Of a stretch of 25,688 bases of DNA, positions 15,555-23,386 are shown piece after piece. The number at the start of each line of letters is the position of its first letter. Positions within the stretch are counted from its first letter, which is position 1. The translations under genes and the position numbers were made by a program. Below the pieces are notes generated by a model. It worked only from the letters and a program-made list of their open reading frames with translations, was not told where the DNA came from and made no database searches. This DNA is from Gemmatimonadota bacterium (lineage in GTDB: Bacteria > Gemmatimonadota > Gemmatimonadetes > Longimicrobiales > RSA9): positions 1 to 25,688 of the forward strand of contig JBBDRO010000073.1 in NCBI GenBank assembly GCA_040905425.1. Direction: 5' to 3'.

Positions 15555-17105
15555 TCATGACTCCCCCTGCTCGGCGCGGAGCGTGGGGAACAGGATGACG
15601 TCCCGGATCGAGGGGCGGTCCGTCACGAGCATGACCAGCCGGTCGATGCCTATGCCCACGCCGCCGGTGGGCGGCATGCCGTACTCCAGGGCGCGCAGGT
15701 AGTCCTCGTCCAGGCGCTGCGCCTCCTCGTCACCCGCCTGCCGGAGCCGGGCCTGGTCCTCGAAGCGCGTGCGCTGGTCCAGCGGGTCGTTCAGCTCGCT
15801 GAAGGCGTTGGCCAGCTCGCGGCCGGCGGCGTACAGCTCGAAGCGCTCCACCAACGTGGGATCGCCGCGCTTGGGCTTGGCCAGCGGCGAGAGCTCGCGC
15901 GGGTAGTCCACCACGAAGGTGGGCTGCACCAGGGTGGGCTCCACCAGCGCCCCGAAGAGCTCGTCCAGCAGCTTGGGCCGGGACAGTTCATGGGCGTCCT
16001 CGATGCCCAGCTCCGCGGCGCGACGGGCCAGCTCCCCGTGGTCGGCGGCGGCCGCGTCGAAGCCGCCCCGCTCGCGCAGCGCGTCCAGGAAGCCCACGCG
16101 GGCGTAGGGCGGCCGGAAGTCCAGCGTACTGCCCTGGAAGGCCACCTCGTCGGCACCCGTGGCGGCGCGCACCGCCGTGCCCATGAGCGCCTCCACGGTG
16201 TCCATCATGTCCAGGTAGTCGGCAAAGGCCTGGTAGAACTCCAGCATGGTGAACTCGGGGTTGTGCGTGCGGTCGATCCCCTCGTTGCGGAAGTCCTTGC
16301 CGATCTCGTAGACGCGCTCCAGGCCGCCCACGATGAGCCGCTTCAGGTACAGCTCGTCGGCAATGCGCAGGTAGAGGCGCATGTCCAGGGTGTTGTGGTG
16401 CGTGGTGAACGGCCGGGCCGAGGCGCCGCCGTAGAGCGGCTGCAGCACCGGCGTCTCTACCTCCACGTAATCCCGCTCGTCCAGGAAGCCACGGATGGCG
16501 GACACGATGCGCGCGCGGATGCGGAAGACCTCCCGGGCGTCCGGGTGCACGGCCAGGTCCGCGTAGCGCTGGCGGTAGCGCTGCTCCACGTCCGCGAAGC
16601 CACCGTGGATCACCACCTGGCCGGTGGCCTCGTCCACCTCCTGCTTGCCGAAGGGGAGTGGCCGGAGGGACTTGGCCAGCAGCTCGACCGTGGTGGCGCG
16701 CAGGGTGACCTCGCCCATGCGCGTGCGCATGAGCGCGCCCTCCACGCCCAGCCAGTCACCCGCGTCCAGGAGCTCGATAACGGCCCAGGTCTCCTCCCCG
16801 AGGTCCTTCTTCCGCAGGTAGAGCTGGATGCGCCCGGAAGCATCCTCCAGGTCCGCGAACACGGTCTTGCCGTGCGAGCGCATGGAGATCAGCCTGCCCG
16901 CCAGGCGCAGGGGCGCTGTTTCCCCCTGCTCGTCGAGCGTGCCTCCGGCCTCCGCCTCCTCGAAGGCGGCCCGGGCGGCCGCGGCGCGGTGGGTCACGCT
17001 GTAGCCATACGCGAAGGGCTCCACGCCGAGGCGTCGCAACGCCTCCAGCTTGTGCAGCCGATCCTCCAGCACCTGGGTCCTGCTCTGGTCCTCGCTCACT
17101 TCCAT
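15555..17105 (-). CDS. lysS: Lysine--tRNA ligase (class II)
   Basis: OB-fold anticodon domain, RYRQRY, YGGASARPF, YLRIADELYLKRL, FRNEGIDRTHNPEF and GMPPTGGVGIGIDRL. Confidence 0.98.
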   Translation of the reverse strand: MEVSEDQSRTQVLEDRLHKLEALRRLGVEPFAYGYSVTHRAAAARAAFEEAEAGGTLDEQGETAPLRLAGRLISMRSHGKTVFADLEDASGRIQLYLRKKDLGEETWAVIELLDAGDWLGVEGALMRTRMGEVTLRATTVELLAKSLRPLPFGKQEVDEATGQVVIHGGFADVEQRYRQRYADLAVHPDAREVFRIRARIVSAIRGFLDERDYVEVETPVLQPLYGGASARPFTTHHNTLDMRLYLRIADELYLKRLIVGGLERVYEIGKDFRNEGIDRTHNPEFTMLEFYQAFADYLDMMDTVEALMGTAVRAATGADEVAFQGSTLDFRPPYARVGFLDALRERGGFDAAAADHGELARRAAELGIEDAHELSRPKLLDELFGALVEPTLVQPTFVVDYPRELSPLAKPKRGDPTLVERFELYAAGRELANAFSELNDPLDQRTRFEDQARLRQAGDEEAQRLDEDYLRALEYGMPPTGGVGIGIDRLVMLVTDRPSIRDVILFPTLRAEQGES

Positions 17106-17128
17106 CCTCTGCGCAACGCCTGGCCCCC

Positions 17129-18236
17129 TCAGGCCACGCCGGCGCCGAACTCCTTCAGGTATGCCTCGATGAACGGATCCAGGTCACCGTTCATGACACG
17201 TTGTACGTCGCCGACCTTCAGCTCGGTGCGATGATCGGTCACCTGCGTATACGGCTGAAAGACGTAGGAGCGGATCTGATGCCCCCAGGCAATCTCCGTC
17301 TTCTGGGATTCCACCTGCGCGCGCTCGGCTTCCCGCTGGTCCAGCTCTCGCTGGTAGAGCGCCGCGCGGAGCATCTTCATGGCCGTGGTCTTGTTCTGGA
17401 ACTGGCTGCGTTCGTTCTGGCAGGCCACCACGATCCCGGTGGGCTCGTGCGTGATGCGCACCGCCGAGCTGGTCTTGTTCACGTGCTGCCCGCCCGCGCC
17501 GCTGGCCCGGTAGACGTCGATGCGCAGGTGCTTGTCCTCGATCTCGATCTCGATGTCATCCTCCACCACGGGGTAGACGAAGACACTGGCAAAGGAGGTG
17601 TGGCGCCGGCTCTGCGCGTCGAAGGGCGAGATGCGCACCAGCCGGTGCACGCCCTTCTCCGCCTTCAGATAGCCGTACGCGTACTGCCCCCGGATCTCCA
17701 GGGTGACGTTCTTGAGCCCCGCCTCCTCGCCGTGGTCGATGTCCAGGATCTGCACGTCGTAGTCGTGCTCGGTGGCCCAGCGGCTGTACATGCGCATGAG
17801 CATCTCGGCCCAGTCCTGGGACTCCGTGCCCCCGGCGCCCGGCTGGATGGTGAGCAGGGCGTCCCGGGTGTCATCCTGGCCCTGCAGCATGGCGCGCAGT
17901 TCCAGGCGCTCCAGCTCAGCGTCCAGGCGGCCCAGTTCGGCGGCCCACTCCGTCTCCATGTCCTCGTCGGGATCGGCCTCGATGAGCTGTGCGAGTTCGG
18001 CCTGCTCGCCAATGCGCGTGGCCAGACCCTCCCAGGGCTCCACCCACCCCTTCAGGGTGTTGGCTTCGTCGATGACCGTGCGCGCGGCGTCCGGGTCGTC
18101 CCAGAAGCCGGGCGTGGCCATGCGCGCTTCCAGCTCATCCACCCGACCCCGCTTGGCGGCCACGTCAAAGATAGCCTCCGAGCGCGTCGAGGCGCCCTTT
18201 CACGTCCTTCAGTCGGTCCCGCTGCTCGCTGTCCAT
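17129..18236 (-). CDS. prfB: Peptide chain release factor 2, translated via programmed +1 frameshift (about 368 aa)
   Basis: ORF1 from ATG 18236 (SD GGAGAGGG) reads MDSEQRDRLKDVKGRLDALGGYL, then TGA at 18167-18165. The +1 frame continues DVAAKRG... and contains GAGGTES, the SPF tripeptide, GGQ and QIRSYV. Confidence 0.97.
18164..18179 (-). promoter_or_regulatory. RF2 autoregulatory +1 frameshift cassette
   Basis: The minus strand reads GGAGGC-TAT-CTT-TGA-C: an internal SD followed by the canonical CTT TGA C shift site. Confidence 0.96.
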
Positions 18237-18257
18237 CGTTCCCTCTCCGGATGCGCG

Positions 18258-18289
18258 CCGGGGCCGCCCATGGAAGTGGACGGCCCCGG
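18258..18289. repeat. GC-rich hairpin in the prfB leader carrying an 18-nt motif also present downstream of lysS
   Basis: CCGGGGCCG 18258-66 and CGGCCCCGG 18281-89 form a perfect inverted repeat. GCCCATGGAAGTGGACGG 18266-83 matches GCCCACGGAAGTGGACGG 15503-20 at 17/18 positions. Confidence 0.75.
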
Positions 18290-18302
18290 GTTCGATTGCC
18301 GT

Positions 18303-18332
18303 AAGCTAACCGCCCCGACCGGAGGCGGGCAA
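18303..18332 (-). promoter_or_regulatory. Putative sigma70-type promoter for prfB-lysS
   Basis: TTGCCC (18332-27), 18-nt spacer, TAGCTT (18308-03), within a 111-nt intergenic gap. Confidence 0.55.
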
Positions 18333-18347
18333 CCGGCGTGGAGCGCC

Positions 18348-19007
18348 TCAGAACAGCTTCTGCCCCCGGGCCAGGATGTCATTCAGCGCATCCCGGAAAT
18401 GCGTGGTCCCCTTGGCCGTTTCGATGCCCACCTGCGCCGCGTACTCCTCCCAGCTCTTCATGATCTCGTCGCGGAAGGTGGCGCGCAGGTTGCCGGCCGC
18501 GAGCGCCTGCTCCAGACGGTCCGGATGGTAGGCCACGATGTCGGAGACCAGCGCGCGCGCAATGCGCTTGGCGCGGGCGTCCGGATCCCGGCTGCCGAAG
18601 ACCGGACGCGGGGCCGTATCGGGGCTCCCGGCGGCCAGCGGGGTGCCCGCGGGCGGGGCGGCGGCCGGCGTACCCGTGCCTGGCAGTTCCCGGGGGAGCT
18701 CCGGTGACGTGGGCGCGGCCGGCGCTTCCGAGGGAGGCGGAGGTCCTGTCGGCGGTGCGGCGGCCGTCTCTATCATGGCTGCGCCACTCTCGGCGGTGGG
18801 CGCGGCGGTGGGCGCGGCGGTGGGCACGGCGGTGGGCACGGCGGTGGGCGCGGCGGTGGGCACGCGTTCCTCCGTGGCGGTGGCGTCGGGATGCTCCACC
18901 CGGAAGGTGTCCGAGCAGCGCGCGCAGCGGGCGCGCACCCCCGCGGCGGGGACGCGGGCCGGATCGACGCGGAAGACGGACTGGCAGCTGGGGCAGCGTA
19001 CGTTCAT
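18348..19007 (-). CDS. Zinc-ribbon (MJ0042-type) protein with Pro/Ala linker and helical C-terminal domain (RomX-like)
   Basis: N-terminal CPSC-x19-CARC, about 100 aa of P/A/T-rich linker, then an ~80-aa domain ARAKRIARALVSDIVAY...FRDALNDIL. ATGA overlap with the GGDEF gene. Confidence 0.85.
   Translation of the reverse strand: MNVRCPSCQSVFRVDPARVPAAGVRARCARCSDTFRVEHPDATATEERVPTAAPTAVPTAVPTAAPTAAPTAESGAAMIETAAAPPTGPPPPSEAPAAPTSPELPRELPGTGTPAAAPPAGTPLAAGSPDTAPRPVFGSRDPDARAKRIARALVSDIVAYHPDRLEQALAAGNLRATFRDEIMKSWEEYAAQVGIETAKGTTHFRDALNDILARGQKLF
18792..18863. repeat. Tandem repeat, 6 x 12 bp GGCGGTGGGC(G/A)C, encoding (V/A)PTA x6
   Basis: Units read directly at 18792, 18804, 18816, 18828, 18840 and 18852. 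Confidence 0.95.
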
Positions 19008-20002
19008 GGCTCGGTCGTGGCCTCCAGCTCCTCCGGCACGAAAGGCACACCACGACCGTCATCTCCGGGTTCATCGGAACGGCGGTCGACCGCGTACACG
19101 GAGCCGGGGAGCTTTTTCGCGAAAGTCTTCATTTCGGTCGCCAGTTCACTCACCCGGGCCGTATGGGTGAAGGTGCGTACCTGATTGGTCACCACGCCGA
19201 TGGAAAGGGTCATCAGGGGGACCCAGAGGATATTACCCCGCCGGTCGCGGCCGAGGAAATACCCCGCACTGCGGTCTTCCTCCGAATACTGGTACGCAAT
19301 GAGTTCATCGAACACCTCGATGATTTCTTCACAGCAGGCCTCCATGTGATCCAGGCCCACGTTGAAGATGAAGTCGTCCCCACCGATATGCCCGATGAAA
19401 CCCTCGGGATGATGGCCCTTAACCACGTCCCGCAGGATGCGCGCGAGCACGCGGATGACACGGTCACCCTCGTTGTAGCCGTAGCGGTCGTTGAACTCCT
19501 TGAAATGATCCAGATCCGCATAGCAGACGGCAAAGGTCTCCTGGCGGCGGATCCGCTCGGCCATGTCACGCTCGATCTGCGGCGTGCCGGGGAGGCGGGT
19601 GGTGGGATGGACGCTGACGTCGCGGTCGGCGCGCTGCAACATCATGTTGAGCCGCAGGATCTGCTCCCGTTCCGCCATGGCGTCGGTGAGCACCTCGTCG
19701 GCGCCCGCCTCCAGCGCCGCCTCCACCACGTCCGGACGGTCCCGATCGGCTACGACCACCACCGGCACGATGCCGCTGAAGGCGTCGCGCTTGAGGTGTC
19801 TGCACAGCTCGGTAGCACGTTTCGACCCGTCCTCGTCCAGTACGAGGCCGAGCGGATACGTGCGATTCACCAGGGCCACCACGTCGTCGCGGAGGGGGGT
19901 CACGTCGAGCGTGAGCCCCTCACCGTCGGCGAAGGTGCGCAGGACGGAGGGAATCTCCCGTGCGCCCGGTGAGTGATAGACCAGTTGCGTTCGAAGGCCC
20001 AT
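19004..20002 (-). CDS. Receiver-like domain plus GGDEF-domain protein (putative diguanylate cyclase, GGDDF type)
   Basis: HPTTRLPG, YADLDHFKEFNDRYGYNEGD, GHIGGDDF and TLSIGV motifs; degenerate REC domain (IVPVVVV, ALEAGADEVL). Start set at ATG 20002 because the TTG at 20041 lies inside the predicted -10 box. Confidence 0.88.
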   Translation of the reverse strand: MGLRTQLVYHSPGAREIPSVLRTFADGEGLTLDVTPLRDDVVALVNRTYPLGLVLDEDGSKRATELCRHLKRDAFSGIVPVVVVADRDRPDVVEAALEAGADEVLTDAMAEREQILRLNMMLQRADRDVSVHPTTRLPGTPQIERDMAERIRRQETFAVCYADLDHFKEFNDRYGYNEGDRVIRVLARILRDVVKGHHPEGFIGHIGGDDFIFNVGLDHMEACCEEIIEVFDELIAYQYSEEDRSAGYFLGRDRRGNILWVPLMTLSIGVVTNQVRTFTHTARVSELATEMKTFAKKLPGSVYAVDRRSDEPGDDGRGVPFVPEELEATTEP

Positions 20003-20039
20003 GCGCTCGGTAGGAGTGGGCTGTGGGGAAGGACGATCC

Positions 20040-20069
20040 AAGCTACGCCTGCCCCCGACGTGGTGTCAA
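20040..20069 (-). promoter_or_regulatory. Putative sigma70-type promoter for the GGDEF / zinc-ribbon pair
   Basis: Consensus TTGACA (20069-64), 18-nt spacer, TAGCTT (20045-40), directly after the rnr stop. Confidence 0.7.
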
Positions 20070-20076
20070 ATGGCGT

Positions 20077-22431
20077 TCAGGAGCGGCCACGTCCCTCCCG
20101 TCCGCCCGAGCGGCTGCCGCCGCCGCCTTTCGTGCCGCCGTTCCCCTTCGTGCCGCTCCGCTTGGAACCGCCGCTCAACTTCGTGCCGCTCCGCTTGGGA
20201 CCGCCACGCCCCTTGCTGCCGCCGCCTTTCGTGCCGCCGTTCCCCTTCGTCCGTCCCCCGCCCCGTGGCCGGCCGCCGCTGCTCTTCCCCGCCCCGGTTC
20301 CGCCCTCGTCGGACGGTGCCGCGCCGGGCCCATCCTCCAGGAGGAATTCGATGCGGCGCTGCTCCAGGTCCACGGAGCCCACCCGGACCCGCACCCGGTC
20401 ACCCAGCCGGAACTGCTTGCGGGTGCGCTCGCCCACCAATGCATAGCGGTCCTCGAGGAAGACGTAGTAGTCGTCCAGCGAACTCACGTGGACCAGTCCT
20501 TCCACGTGGAAGGCGTCCAGCAGCACGAAGAAACCGAAAGCCGCCACGCCGCTCACGGTCCCCTCGAAGGCGTCACCTACGTGACGCTCCATGAATTCCG
20601 TCTTCTTCAGGTCGATGCTGTCCCGCTCCGCCTCCACGGCGGCGCGCTCCCGCTCGCTGCCATGGCGGGCGGCCGTGACCAGCGCCTCACCCGCCTCGCC
20701 GGGCACCGCCCGCGCGCCCTCCAGCAGGTGCTCCACGGTGAGCCGGTGCACGAGCAGGTCCGGGTAGCGCCGGATCGGTGAGGTGAAGTGCCCGTAATGC
20801 TTGGCCGCCAGTCCGAAATGGCCCGCGTTCTCCACGCTGTAGCGTGCTTGCTTCATGGAGCGCAGGACCACCGTGGAAATGAGGCTCGACTCGGGGCGAC
20901 CCTGCACACGGGTCAGCAACCGTTGCAGATCGGCCGGCCCCACGGGGCCCCGGCCGCCCAGGCGATGGCCGAACGTGCCGGCCACTTCCCGGAGCTGCTC
21001 CAGTCGCTCCTCGTCCGGCCGTTCGTGAATGCGATAAACGAAGGGGATTCGCGCCCGCGAGGCGGCTCGGGCCACTGTCTCGTTGGCCAGCAGCATGAAA
21101 TCCTCGATGAGCTTGTGCGCCTCCAGACGGAGCACCTTCTGGACATCGGTGGGCTGCCCCTCGGCGTCCAGGATCACGCGGGATTCGGGCAGGTCGAAGT
21201 CCAGACTGCCGCGCTCCTGCCGGGCGGCACGGAGCGCTCTGCTCAGGGTGCGCAGGCCGTGCAGCGCCTGATCCACCTCGGCACCCAGGGAGCGCTCCCC
21301 GTCCAGCACCGCCTGAGCGTCCTCATAGGCAAGCTTGTGGCGACTGCGAATGACGCTGCGCACGATGCGGTGACCGTGCACTCTGCCATCCTCGTCCACT
21401 TCCACCAGCACGGTCATGGCGAGCCGGTCCACGTCGGGCCGCAGCGAGCAGAGGTCGGTGGAGAGGGCGTGGGGCAGCATCGGCACCACGCGATCCACCA
21501 GGTACACGCTCGTACCGCGCTCGTAGGCCTCGGCATCCAGTTCGGTTCCAGGGCGCACGTACCAGGACACGTCGGCAATGTGAATGCCCACCCGCCAGCG
21601 CCCCTGGCCAAGATCCTCGACGGAGAGCGCGTCATCGTGGTCCTTGGCGTCCGCGGGATCGACCGTGAAGACCAGGGTGTCCCGCAGGTCCGTGCGGCCG
21701 GCCATCTCGGCGGCGCCCAGGCCAGCCTCCCGGATGGCCGTGGCCTCCTGCTCCACCTCCGCCGGGAAGTCGGTCGGTAGTTCGTGAGCGTGGAGGATGG
21801 CCAGGACGTCCACACCGGGATCACCCAGCTTGCCCAGTACCCGCTCCACCTCACCGGAGGGACCCCGTTGCGGACTGCCCCAGTCGATGACCCGGACCAC
21901 CACCACGTCGCCATCGCCGGCCTCACCGGCCAGGCCGGCCGGTACGAAGACGTCCCGCTCGAGCTTGCGGTCCTCCGGGGTGACGAAGCCGTAGTTCTGG
22001 CCCGGGTGATAGGTGCCCACCACCGTCTCGCGGGCGCGGTGCAGCACGCGCACCACCGTGCCTTCCGGCCGCTTGTTGGGCTTCCGCCGCTCCACGCGGG
22101 CCACTACCCGATCCCGGTGCAACGCGGAACCGACGGCATTGGGCGGGATGAAGACATCCTCCTCGTCCTCCCCGTCCGTTACCACGAAGGCTGCGCCGCC
22201 GCGGATGGTCTGCAGGCGGCCCACGGCCAGGTTGATGCGCTCCGGGGCGGCATAGCGGTCTCTGCGCACCCGGTAGAGCAGACCGGAACCGGTCAGATCG
22301 TCGAGCAGCTCCTGGAAGGCGTCCAGCTGGTCGGCCGGTACGCCCAGACCCTCCGCGAGTTCGGCCGCCCGCATGGGTCGGCCGGCATCATCGCGCAGGA
22401 AATCGAGCAAGGCTTCGGCGGAAAAGCTCAC
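20077..22431 (-). CDS. rnr: Ribonuclease R
   Basis: N-terminal HTH, cold-shock domains, catalytic DPADAKDHDDA, HFTSPIRRYPDL, S1 domain and basic G/K/R tail. Start revised to GTG 22431 (784 aa) to avoid overlap with the upstream gene. Confidence 0.95.
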   Translation of the reverse strand: MSFSAEALLDFLRDDAGRPMRAAELAEGLGVPADQLDAFQELLDDLTGSGLLYRVRRDRYAAPERINLAVGRLQTIRGGAAFVVTDGEDEEDVFIPPNAVGSALHRDRVVARVERRKPNKRPEGTVVRVLHRARETVVGTYHPGQNYGFVTPEDRKLERDVFVPAGLAGEAGDGDVVVVRVIDWGSPQRGPSGEVERVLGKLGDPGVDVLAILHAHELPTDFPAEVEQEATAIREAGLGAAEMAGRTDLRDTLVFTVDPADAKDHDDALSVEDLGQGRWRVGIHIADVSWYVRPGTELDAEAYERGTSVYLVDRVVPMLPHALSTDLCSLRPDVDRLAMTVLVEVDEDGRVHGHRIVRSVIRSRHKLAYEDAQAVLDGERSLGAEVDQALHGLRTLSRALRAARQERGSLDFDLPESRVILDAEGQPTDVQKVLRLEAHKLIEDFMLLANETVARAASRARIPFVYRIHERPDEERLEQLREVAGTFGHRLGGRGPVGPADLQRLLTRVQGRPESSLISTVVLRSMKQARYSVENAGHFGLAAKHYGHFTSPIRRYPDLLVHRLTVEHLLEGARAVPGEAGEALVTAARHGSERERAAVEAERDSIDLKKTEFMERHVGDAFEGTVSGVAAFGFFVLLDAFHVEGLVHVSSLDDYYVFLEDRYALVGERTRKQFRLGDRVRVRVGSVDLEQRRIEFLLEDGPGAAPSDEGGTGAGKSSGGRPRGGGRTKGNGGTKGGGSKGRGGPKRSGTKLSGGSKRSGTKGNGGTKGGGGSRSGGREGRGRS
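20119..20250. repeat. Interleaved direct repeats in the RNase R basic tail
   Basis: 33-bp GCCGCCGCCTTTCGTGCCGCCGTTCCCCTTCGT at 20119-51 and 20218-50; 20-bp CTTCGTGCCGCTCCGCTTGG at 20146-65 and 20179-98. These encode TKGNGGTKGGG x2 and KRSGTK x2. Confidence 0.9.
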
Positions 22432-22447
22432 GGCAAGGACTTTCTCG

Positions 22448-23386
22448 TCACTGGAAGTGGAGTTCGAATGCGGCACTCCACCGGGGACGGTCGAAGGTTC
22501 CACCCAGGCTGCTACGGATGCGCAGGATCGGTGCTCCGTCGGCGCCACGCAGGCGCGCGAGGACGAATGCGTCCACCGCGCTCACGAGGTGGTTGGCAAG
22601 GATCGCACCGAGCAGGGTGGTGGCATCCCGGAAAGCTTCGTCGCTCCCCCGGATGAGTTCACGGAAAACCTGGCGCTCCAGGTCGTTGTTGCCCCAGGCC
22701 CACGCATAGCCCGGGGGGATGGCGTGCTCCATGTAGAAGGCCAGCGCGGCCTGGTAGGCGGGATCCTGGGGATCGGCCTGCGTACCCGCGGGGACGTAAA
22801 GCCCCACGGCCAGCTGCCATATTTCGCCATTGAACGTACGTGGATCCTCCTCGGGCTGGATGCCCGGCTGAGCGGGGTCCACGTCCCACGCACCGCTTGC
22901 CGTGTAATGATCCAGCGCTTCGTAGTACTCGAAAACCGTGTCTGGCCGGGCACCGGCACTGACGCGGCGCGGCACCGAGCGCGCCAGCTCACGATAACGC
23001 GCTTCGAGCTTGCGCGTGTCGCTGCGGCGGTCCGCGTAGGACAGCCACGCCCACGCCTCCACTACGGCGTAGGGAATCCACCGCTCGCTCTCCAGCAAGT
23101 ACTGGCCCGCACCGGGCAGCAGCGCGGAGGCCAGGAAGGCCGCGGCGGGCGCGGTGGCGTCCTGCTGGGCCACGAGGATCGGTGGCTGGTGTGCGTGGAG
23201 TCCGTGAACGGCAGGCGGCGTTTGCGCAGCGGCCGACATGCCGGCAAGGCCGGTCGCCCACACCAGGATCGCCCCGCGACCGGCCGCCCACGCCAGCACC
23301 ACGGCGCGGCCGGTCAGCCCGGCTCGGGTCATTCGGCCGCCGGCCGCGATCGCAGCCCCTTGCCGGCAACCACGCGCGGACCTCAC
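22448..23386 (-). CDS. Hypothetical exported/membrane protein with an AFLASALLPGAGQY segment
   Basis: Occupies the gap between the PorV-like gene and rnr. The start is GTG 23386 (GTGA overlap) or ATG 23332, not 23875. Signal-like N-terminus, S-x-x-LPGAGQ-Y motif, hydrophobic ILANHLVSAVDAFV and a beta-strand-like aromatic C-terminus. Confidence 0.75.
   Translation of the reverse strand: MRSARGCRQGAAIAAGGRMTRAGLTGRAVVLAWAAGRGAILVWATGLAGMSAAAQTPPAVHGLHAHQPPILVAQQDATAPAAAFLASALLPGAGQYLLESERWIPYAVVEAWAWLSYADRRSDTRKLEARYRELARSVPRRVSAGARPDTVFEYYEALDHYTASGAWDVDPAQPGIQPEEDPRTFNGEIWQLAVGLYVPAGTQADPQDPAYQAALAFYMEHAIPPGYAWAWGNNDLERQVFRELIRGSDEAFRDATTLLGAILANHLVSAVDAFVLARLRGADGAPILRIRSSLGGTFDRPRWSAAFELHFQ

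Follow-up and report, generated by a model that had tools for sequence, protein, structure and literature searches.

We describe here two overlapping genes on the minus strand of a 25,688-nucleotide stretch of DNA from a Gemmatimonadota bacterium of the order Longimicrobiales (positions 1 to 25,688 of contig JBBDRO010000073.1, assembly GCA_040905425.1; this whole stretch is referred to as the window). Gene 1 (19004..20002) encodes a protein of 332 amino acids (aa) with a pseudo-receiver and a GGDEF-fold domain that bears the motif GGDDF, and gene 2 (18348..19007) encodes a protein of 219 aa in which a zinc ribbon and a linker precede a domain related to RomX of Myxococcus xanthus. The two genes are a real, conserved unit, and gene 1 represents an undescribed, putative cyclase-type partner for the RomR/RomX arm of the MglA polarity switch. 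The pair probably links the MglA cell-polarity switch to nucleotide second-messenger signalling. Our favoured reading, that it constitutes one expression unit supplying a RomR/RomX-type arm of this switch in the class Gemmatimonadetes, could well be right, though we stop short of calling it probable.

Results

Gene 2 joins a GltJ/ZitP-type zinc ribbon to a RomX-like domain

As judged by profile and fold comparison, gene 2 is a GltJ/ZitP-type zinc ribbon (ZnR) joined to the sole RomX-homologous domain of the genome; no second match to the RomX-like domain was found in the genome with tblastn below an E value of 0.3. Pfam and NCBIfam recognise solely the N-terminal MJ0042-type ribbon (residues 1–37; 18897..19007; all features described here lie on the minus strand), which scores 50 bits with Zn_ribbon_4 (cut-off 30.3) and 42.7 bits with TIGR02098 (cut-off 20.9). 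Its four cysteines (C5, C8, C28 and C31) are invariant among the 31 homologues on which the gene 2 alignment and profile are based. The ribbon is followed by a Pro/Ala-rich disordered linker that varies in length among the homologues (residues 38 to ~135; 18603..18896; delimited by the alignment and by a predicted local distance difference test score [pLDDT] of 42–64) and by a highly conserved C-terminal domain of ~84 residues, the RomX-like helical bundle (residues ~136–219; 18351..18602).

A search of the profile against all sequences of the Protein Data Bank (PDB) returned RomX itself (8ZNA_A; E 8.3e-9), with profile positions 120–193 falling on RomX residues 5–78 of 95, together with the ZnR domain of GltJ, also known as AgmX (7ZOK; E 2.3e-5), and the zinc finger of ZitP (2NB9; E 2e-4). 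The first-pass annotation, made from the letters of the window only, had pointed to an AgmX/GltJ-type zinc ribbon and to likeness with RomX, and both designations are borne out by these matches. In the AlphaFold2 (AF2) model of gene 2 the ribbon has a pLDDT of ~95, and C-terminal helices spanning residues 142–218 have values of 76–94. Foldseek ranked ZitP first and RomX second for this model; the alignment with 8ZNA (probability 1.00, 76 columns, 29% identity, TM score 0.57 by target) has a weak E value of 4.1e-2 because the whole 219-aa model served as the query.

The residues that matter in RomX can be located in the alignment. Helix 1 of RomX binds MglA-GTP; an R11A/R14A variant loses both binding and exchange activity, and a D19A variant loses exchange activity, as described in a preprint (10.1101/2024.02.20.581209). 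R11, R14 and D19 align with R148, R151 and D156 of gene 2, which are invariant in the 31 sequences. According to the same preprint, helix 3 of RomX binds the receiver domain of RomR via the Leu-75/Arg-76 pair and Trp-87, and an L75A/R76A exchange breaks this interaction (10.1101/2024.02.20.581209). A basic residue of gene 2, R/K214, aligns with the helix-3 arginine in most of the 31 sequences, the numbering of our alignment being off by one from that of the preprint.

Gene 1 combines a degenerate receiver with a GGDDF-type domain

In gene 1, a pseudo-receiver domain (residues 1 to ~126; 19625..20002) precedes a GGDEF-fold domain (residues ~132–311; 19070..19609) whose motif GGDDF is encoded at 19370–19384. 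The Pfam GGDEF model (PF00990) matches with 53.2 bits (cut-off 23.8) and covers only model positions 18–88 of 161. The AF2 model (pLDDT 86.4; predicted template-modelling score 0.80) comprises a full (beta-alpha)5 domain, a long helix, a complete GGDEF fold and a short disordered tail. Its best whole-length matches in Foldseek are WspR, DgcR and PleD, with E values of 1e-15 to 1e-19 at 15–18% identity; many further GGDEF domains are among the Foldseek hits. In these three receiver-GGDEF diguanylate cyclases an intact receiver is phosphorylated to switch the enzyme, the motif is GG[D/E]EF, and RxxD inhibitory sites (I-sites) are present. Gene 1 shares their domain order with a helical linker and, unlike them, has neither an intact receiver nor a GG[D/E]EF motif nor an RxxD I-site.

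The receiver fold is evident from five strand–helix units in residues 6–126 and from a match to the PleD receiver in the PDB profile search (E 2e-5). At the level of Pfam, no Response_reg match was obtained in gene 1 at E ≤ 0.1, and this receiver lies outside the 55 PF00072 hits of the genome. None of the 20 aligned class sequences retains the acidic pair, the Thr/Ser or the Lys of canonical receivers, whereas Asp56 persists in 19. Judged by these residues, the gene 1 receiver is incapable of canonical phosphorylation. Three homologues from other classes of the phylum (loci L014–L016) still have the full set, namely the acidic pair (as DDE), phospho-acceptor Asp, Thr and Lys; they have no RomX neighbour, and at least L014 adjoins a histidine kinase. 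Decay of the receiver thus coincides with the RomX-like neighbour, the receiver being decayed and the neighbour present in the class, and the receiver intact and the neighbour missing in L014–L016.

The GGDDF motif is invariant in both aligned sets (26 and 23 sequences), and the cyclase domain is ~90% invariant across the order. Residues D163, D165, N171 and D180 align with the D-x-D...N-D...G-D segment of PleD and are invariant or nearly so; in PleD, the D-x-D, Asn and Asp residues are metal and guanine contacts. In homologues from family f11, the Asn of these GGDEF-fold substrate contacts is an Asp. The presence of D180 at the base-selecting position predicts that the GGDDF family is specific for GTP. 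No RxxD inhibitory site precedes the GGDDF motif, the corresponding stretch reading HPEGFIGHI; the I-site is the usual receptor site for cyclic di-GMP (c-di-GMP) in degenerate GGDEF proteins. Of the pseudo-receiver GGDEF enzyme claimed by the first-pass annotation, the pseudo-receiver and the GGDEF-type fold are retained, and enzyme activity is uncertain because the motif is GGDDF rather than GGDEF.

Gene 1 belongs to a large family. A profile search that covered 1.84 billion representatives yielded 2731 clusters at E ≤ 1e-30, spread across many phyla, and GGDDF is the sole motif of its type in 125 of the best 150 family representatives, most of the others having GGDDF or AGDDF/GGDDY. Architectures include receiver-GGDDF, three receivers followed by GGDDF, kinase-receiver-GGDDF, receiver-GGDDF-EAL and receiver-GGDDF-HD-GYP. 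We found no characterised member of this receiver-cyclase family. Fusion to EAL or HD-GYP is frequent in the family, and the Pfam match spans just one half of the GGDEF domain. In a single fragment of 218 aa (P0380), a GGDDF C-terminus is followed by a zinc-ribbon match; it was set aside as a probable mis-called gene boundary rather than a fusion. In the Protein Atlas, where clusters are unnamed and feature scores lie below 0.9, a RomX-like domain appears behind GAF or receiver domains in Acidobacteriota, and a structure match connects the RomX-like domain with a Response_reg cluster; we take both as leads only.

The order of the two genes is conserved in the class

Conservation was assessed in 121 genomes sampled from the phylum and in 80 public loci; because both sets come from one species collection, they do not count as independent evidence, and the tallies from the 121 genomes include two unpublished ones (G057 and G097) on which no conclusion depends. 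Of the 121 genomes, 94 have the GGDDF gene and 88 have ZnR-RomX. Among the 85 class genomes with a GGDDF gene, the coordinates, read by eye, place ZnR-RomX immediately downstream on the same strand in 82; the exceptions are two genomes in which the contig ends (G027 and G111) and one that has no ZnR-RomX gene (G105). A scripted check of the 80 public loci gave the same picture: among 48 loci from Gemmatimonadota there are 43 in which the next open reading frame (ORF) carries a zinc ribbon and a RomX-like domain, with prfB and in most cases lysS behind it, and the remaining five are cut by contig ends, so that the order holds in all 43 assessable loci. The first-pass annotation had proposed synteny across related genomes as a check on the pair, and on both counts the genes have stayed together. 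Within the loci sampled, the GGDDF/ZnR-RomX pairing is confined to Gemmatimonadota.

The spacing is tight as well. Among the 41 of 45 loci in which the start of gene 2 could be placed, 19 show a 4-nt overlap, 18 have a distance of 0–30 nt and four a distance of 48–76 nt. When twelve regions were inspected, the series GGDDF, ZnR-RomX, prfB, lysS was found in all six loci of the class, with rnr upstream of the pair in closer relatives only. This series is the ancestral order of the class. The notion that the pair was inserted as a unit among housekeeping genes is therefore not upheld, and a recent insertion is ruled out by the gene order conserved across the class; the two-gene unit is ancient in the class Gemmatimonadetes.

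One promoter precedes two overlapping genes

The stop codon of gene 1 overlaps the start codon of gene 2 in an ATGA at 19004–19007 (TCAT on the plus strand), as the first-pass annotation had noted and as can be read directly in the sequence. Upstream of gene 1 lies a sigma-70-type promoter (20040..20069) composed of TTGACA (20069–20064), an 18-nt spacer and TAGCTT (20045–20040), its TTGACA starting 8 nt past the rnr stop. The longest ORF of gene 1 (19004–20041) begins at a TTG (20041) within the –10 box, and homologues, which share 67–97% identity, nearly all have 329–333 aa; the ATG at 20002 is therefore the likely start.

A consensus promoter scanner applied to 17000–21000 called no promoter and no minus-strand terminator; it misses the promoter of the pair because TAGCTT matches TATAAT at only three of six positions. 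Counted over all 4.1 Mb of the genome, TTGACA...TANNNT has 26 and 24 occurrences at spacers of 17 and 18 nt, and each of the remaining spacers between 10 and 26 nt has 0–4. For TTGNNN...TAGCTT the counts are 14 and 16 at these two spacers and 0–5 at others. In addition, a TTGAC-N17/18-TAnnnT site is found 54–113 nt upstream of the protein-match start in 24 of 29 related loci. Spacer enrichment and recurrence together indicate that the site is more than a chance occurrence, and on these grounds we regard the promoter, TTGACA-N18-TAGCTT as originally annotated, as real enough to act on. The same counts give a glimpse of the promoter grammar of the organism, in which TTGACA-N17/18-TAnnnT is at least sixfold more frequent than the same boxes at other spacers and TAGCTT is among the preferred –10 hexamers.

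A separate promoter had also been claimed for prfB. A plausible site is present here (TTGCCC-N18-TAGCTT; 18303..18332), upstream of the prfB start codon at 18236, and TTGCC-N18-TAGCTT occurs six times in the genome as compared with 0–2 times at other spacers. The claim does not extend to the class: a comparable site was found in only ten of 42 related loci and none in the other 32. Since the counterpart is so restricted, prfB in much of the class may also be read from the upstream promoter.

RomX-like genes co-occur with MglA

The genome encodes both MglA and MglB, which the first-pass annotation had suggested looking for. Contig C65 (21500–22700) carries a canonical mglB-mglA operon, with a Roadblock gene followed by a gene for a 195-aa MglA. 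A second MglA, of 209 aa, is encoded on contig C100 (108000–120000, which is locus L007; ~1200–11000 of L007) on one strand with three Roadblock-domain genes, in a cluster that also holds a DnaA-like AAA+ ATPase and DUF4388/TPR proteins. MglA positions 108, 111 and 115 are acidic residues placed near RomX in the preprint cited above (10.1101/2024.02.20.581209). In the MglA of C100, R53, Q82, E108 and E111 are kept and D115 is present; in that of C65, R53, Q82 and E108 are kept, with D111 and A115 at the other two positions. Most class genomes show two MglA matches.

Across the 121 genomes of the phylum, MglA is present in 97 and the RomX-like gene in 88. Every one of the 88 genomes with a RomX-like gene also has MglA, and none of the 24 without MglA has a RomX-like gene, a distribution that supports the proposed tie between the two. 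Roughly four lineages lack both genes (part of family f2, most of f7, f9 and f10), and in the mixed family f2 the same three of nine genomes carry both. An MglA match without a RomX-like match was seen in nine genomes, namely G027 (a contig end), G075, G089 and six of families f11/f12 whose MglA matches are weak. A GGDDF orthologue occurs in one of the 24 MglA-negative genomes (G105), to which two weak domain-only matches in family f10 can be added.

A search for romR had likewise been suggested. When 54 of the 55 PF00072 hits were screened for an N-terminal receiver with a Pro-rich tail (more than 11% Pro), no RomR-like protein emerged, a composition filter of this kind being too crude to show absence.

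Neighbouring genes

The pair is flanked upstream by rnr (20077–22548) and downstream by prfB (17129..18236), after which follows lysS (15555–17105). The prfB gene contains a programmed +1 frameshift site: the first frame, opened by the ATG at 18236, is short and terminates in CTTTGAC (18170–18164), preceded by GGAGG, and CTTTGA is found at the same place of prfB in all 42 related loci. The C-terminus of RNase R (20077–20350) is a Gly/Lys/Arg/Ser-rich tail of ~90 residues made of near-repeats with GTKGNGGTKGGG-like units.

Discussion

The pair resembles RomR/RomX of M. xanthus in several respects. The C-terminal 84 residues of gene 2 are homologous to RomX and have the same helical-bundle fold, the Arg/Arg/Asp triad is kept, the gene co-occurs with MglA, and a receiver-fold partner is encoded next door. 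The differences are equally clear. RomX is a free protein of ~90 aa, whereas the corresponding domain here is fused to a zinc ribbon via a disordered linker of ~100 aa. RomR is described as a receiver followed by a Pro-rich linker and, at the C-terminus, by a Glu-rich part to which MglC binds (PMC12719032); gene 1 has neither the Pro-rich linker nor the Glu-rich tail and combines a degenerate receiver with a GGDDF cyclase-type domain instead. The status of RomR/RomX as a true exchange factor is itself a matter of dispute (10.1101/2024.10.31.621274; PMC12719032).

The ribbon of gene 2 is of the same type as those of GltJ (7ZOK) and ZitP (2NB9), and Cys 5, 8, 28 and 31 correspond to the GltJ positions as reported (PMC11135422). 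According to Attia et al., the GltJ ZnR recruits MglB after MglA-GTP has bound to the adjacent linker (PMC11135422). However, GltJ belongs to the gliding machine as a membrane protein that also has Linker and GYF domains, and ZitP binds PopZ, while the ribbon described here forms the N-terminus of a soluble RomX-like protein. The building blocks of the module are not new, since proteins that unite a RomX fold, a receiver and a zinc finger already appear in a preprint: Chakraborty and Gayathri report that RomX-fold domains are often joined with receiver and zinc-finger domains in one protein, as in the AlphaFold model A0A2N6E6P0 from Desulfuromonas (10.1101/2024.02.20.581209). All three elements recur in our pair. 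By contrast to these single-polypeptide fusions, for which the available text of the preprint mentions no GGDEF domain, the receiver of the pair resides on a neighbouring gene, is degenerate and is joined to GGDDF.

That the polarity module can be connected to c-di-GMP or to proteins of the GGDEF type also has precedents. In Bdellovibrio, RomR is reported to bind the GGDEF-type receptor CdgA, whose motif is GVNEF (PMC3983030, PMC11025332), and in M. xanthus c-di-GMP made by DmxA is reported to ensure symmetric allocation of RomR (PMC11255338). CdgA is a GVNEF receptor that, in the accessible parts of these papers, is not described as being encoded with romX, and DmxA is described as a membrane cyclase in an operon with ftsB; unlike both, the pseudo-receiver protein studied here is translationally coupled to a RomX-like gene. 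We considered CdgA as an orthologue of gene 1 and rejected it at the level of the motif, which is GVNEF. As to the GGDDF motif, the first active enzyme that carries it is, as reported, GSU1937 of Geobacter sulfurreducens, a Hypr-GGDEF that makes cyclic GMP-AMP (PMC8835794). Like gene 1, GSU1937 has the motif in a protein without an EAL or HD-GYP domain. It differs, in a comparison made at the level of the shared domain, by its transmembrane input and by Ser at the base-selecting position, where the GGDDF family has Asp (D180).

The first-pass annotation knew of no description of such a module. Among the papers listed by full-text searches, judged by their titles and the beginnings of their abstracts and with most subscription journals out of reach, none describes a RomX-like gene coupled to a GGDEF-type gene. 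Within this scope the claim holds for the coupled pair, and it has to be narrowed with regard to its parts, given that RomX/receiver/zinc-finger fusions and the binding of RomR to CdgA are published.

A functional coupling of the two proteins is plausible, and the mechanism that we infer is as follows. The RomX-like bundle would bind MglA-GTP through helix 1, and its last helix would bind the pseudo-receiver of gene 1 in the way RomX binds the receiver domain of RomR. The GGDDF domain would thereby take its input from protein contact instead of phosphorylation, and it might dimerise and make c-di-GMP, tying second-messenger synthesis to the position of MglA-GTP. By analogy with GltJ, the zinc ribbon may serve to recruit MglB; by analogy with ZitP, its target may instead be a polar anchor. 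In its most far-reaching form, the model would have a Ras-like GTPase control a bacterial nucleotide cyclase, with MglA-GTP docking via the RomX-like adaptor on a dead receiver and switching on local c-di-GMP synthesis at one pole. We consider this form unlikely; if true, it would represent a prokaryotic counterpart of the G-protein control of palm-fold cyclases in eukaryotes, and the GGDDF protein would be the replacement of RomR in Gemmatimonadota.

Several observations weigh against a joint function in MglA signalling, and they bear on the alternative of a conservative array (rnr, GGDDF, ZnR-RomX, prfB, lysS) in which the two genes stand side by side and work independently, the ZnR-RomX protein serving MglA alone and the GGDDF protein responding to an unrelated input. 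Each gene survives without the other. Two complete genomes, G061 and G079 (loci L017 and L018), keep ZnR-RomX, prfB, lysS and MglA and have no GGDDF match at E ≤ 1e-20, and their RomX-like C-terminus stays conserved despite this loss; conversely, G105 (L019) keeps GGDDF, prfB and lysS without ZnR-RomX and without MglA. None of 32 loci from other phyla (Zixibacteria, Omnitrophota, Planctomycetes, Clostridia, Ignavibacteria, Nitrospirae, Elusimicrobia, Syntrophales and others) has a ZnR or RomX-like ORF within 4 kb. The GGDDF family is large (the 2731 clusters at E ≤ 1e-30); none of its best 150 representatives is fused to a RomX-like domain, and the five longer RomX-like proteins that were found are all zinc-ribbon proteins, none with a GGDEF domain. 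Moreover, the entire array including prfB-lysS is fixed across the class; this fixed place upstream of prfB-lysS shows that gene order is generally conservative here, which makes adjacency weaker evidence, and related genomes are not independent samples, so that kinship inflates the counts. At the level of the proposed interface, RomX Trp-87, which is buried in the contact with RomR, has no counterpart in gene 2, the protein ending five residues after R214 with an invariant Phe219. On the enzymatic side, GGDDF departs from GG[D/E]EF, and the sole active GGDDF example that we found in print, GSU1937, was reported as an engineered fusion (PMC8835794). Nevertheless, mere neighbourhood is rather unlikely in our view. 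It leaves unaccounted for the 4-nt overlap in 19 of 41 loci and the gap of 0–30 nt in a further 18, the one conserved promoter common to both genes, the loss of the phospho-acceptor machinery of the receiver in coincidence with the arrival of the neighbour, and the near-confinement of the GGDDF orthologue to genomes with MglA (G105 and the two weak f10 matches apart). Independently of this question, G061, G079 and G105 are natural 'knock-outs' and useful as comparison organisms.

If the two proteins do cooperate, the GGDDF domain might still not be a cyclase; it could be a sensor of GTP or c-di-GMP or a scaffold, gene 1 taking the part of RomR as a hub by which the RomX-like adaptor is positioned, much as the degenerate GGDEF receptor CdgA binds RomR at the invasive pole of Bdellovibrio. 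The motif fits such a role, because GGDDF departs from the active-site signature [G/A/S]G[D/E]E[F/Y]. Many family members are fused to EAL or HD-GYP, a context in which degenerate GGDEF domains are described as usually regulatory (PMC8835794), CdgA with its GVNEF motif is reported to bind a TPR protein in addition to RomR (PMC3983030, PMC11025332), and the crude screen of the receiver hits revealed no receiver with a Pro-rich tail that could occupy the place of RomR. Yet the RxxD I-site through which a receptor would be expected to act is missing upstream of the motif, the Asp/Asn/Asp contacts aligned with PleD are kept in a domain whose ~90% invariance across the order is typical of an active site, and GSU1937 shows that GGDDF can catalyse (PMC8835794). 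We therefore regard a sensor or scaffold as unlikely. Highly improbable, finally, is a likeness to RomX that is merely structural and implies no role with MglA, the gene being engaged, for example, in a task tied to translation termination. The position of ZnR-RomX directly upstream of prfB in every class locus examined would agree with such a task, as would the lack of a separate prfB promoter motif in 32 of 42 loci, by which co-transcription of prfB is possible; on the other side stand a RomX profile match of E 8.3e-9 across nearly the whole of RomX with an invariant functional triad, the strict co-occurrence with MglA (88 of 88 genomes with, and 24 of 24 without), and the fact that the closest solved relatives of the zinc ribbon are the polarity proteins GltJ and ZitP.

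The MglA/MglB/RomR/RomX switch is understood almost only from Myxococcus and Bdellovibrio. Our analysis identifies an equivalent of RomX in Gemmatimonadota, a widespread phylum of soil and sediment, and indicates that the wiring differs there, in that the RomX equivalent shares a polypeptide with a GltJ-type zinc ribbon and its gene is translationally coupled to that of a cyclase-type protein with a decayed receiver. The pair offers a view of one way in which polarity control by a small GTPase may be connected with cyclic-dinucleotide signalling, and an example of a pseudo-receiver that may have swapped phosphorylation for a protein ligand. At the same time it brings into view a large family of proteins defined by the GGDDF motif.

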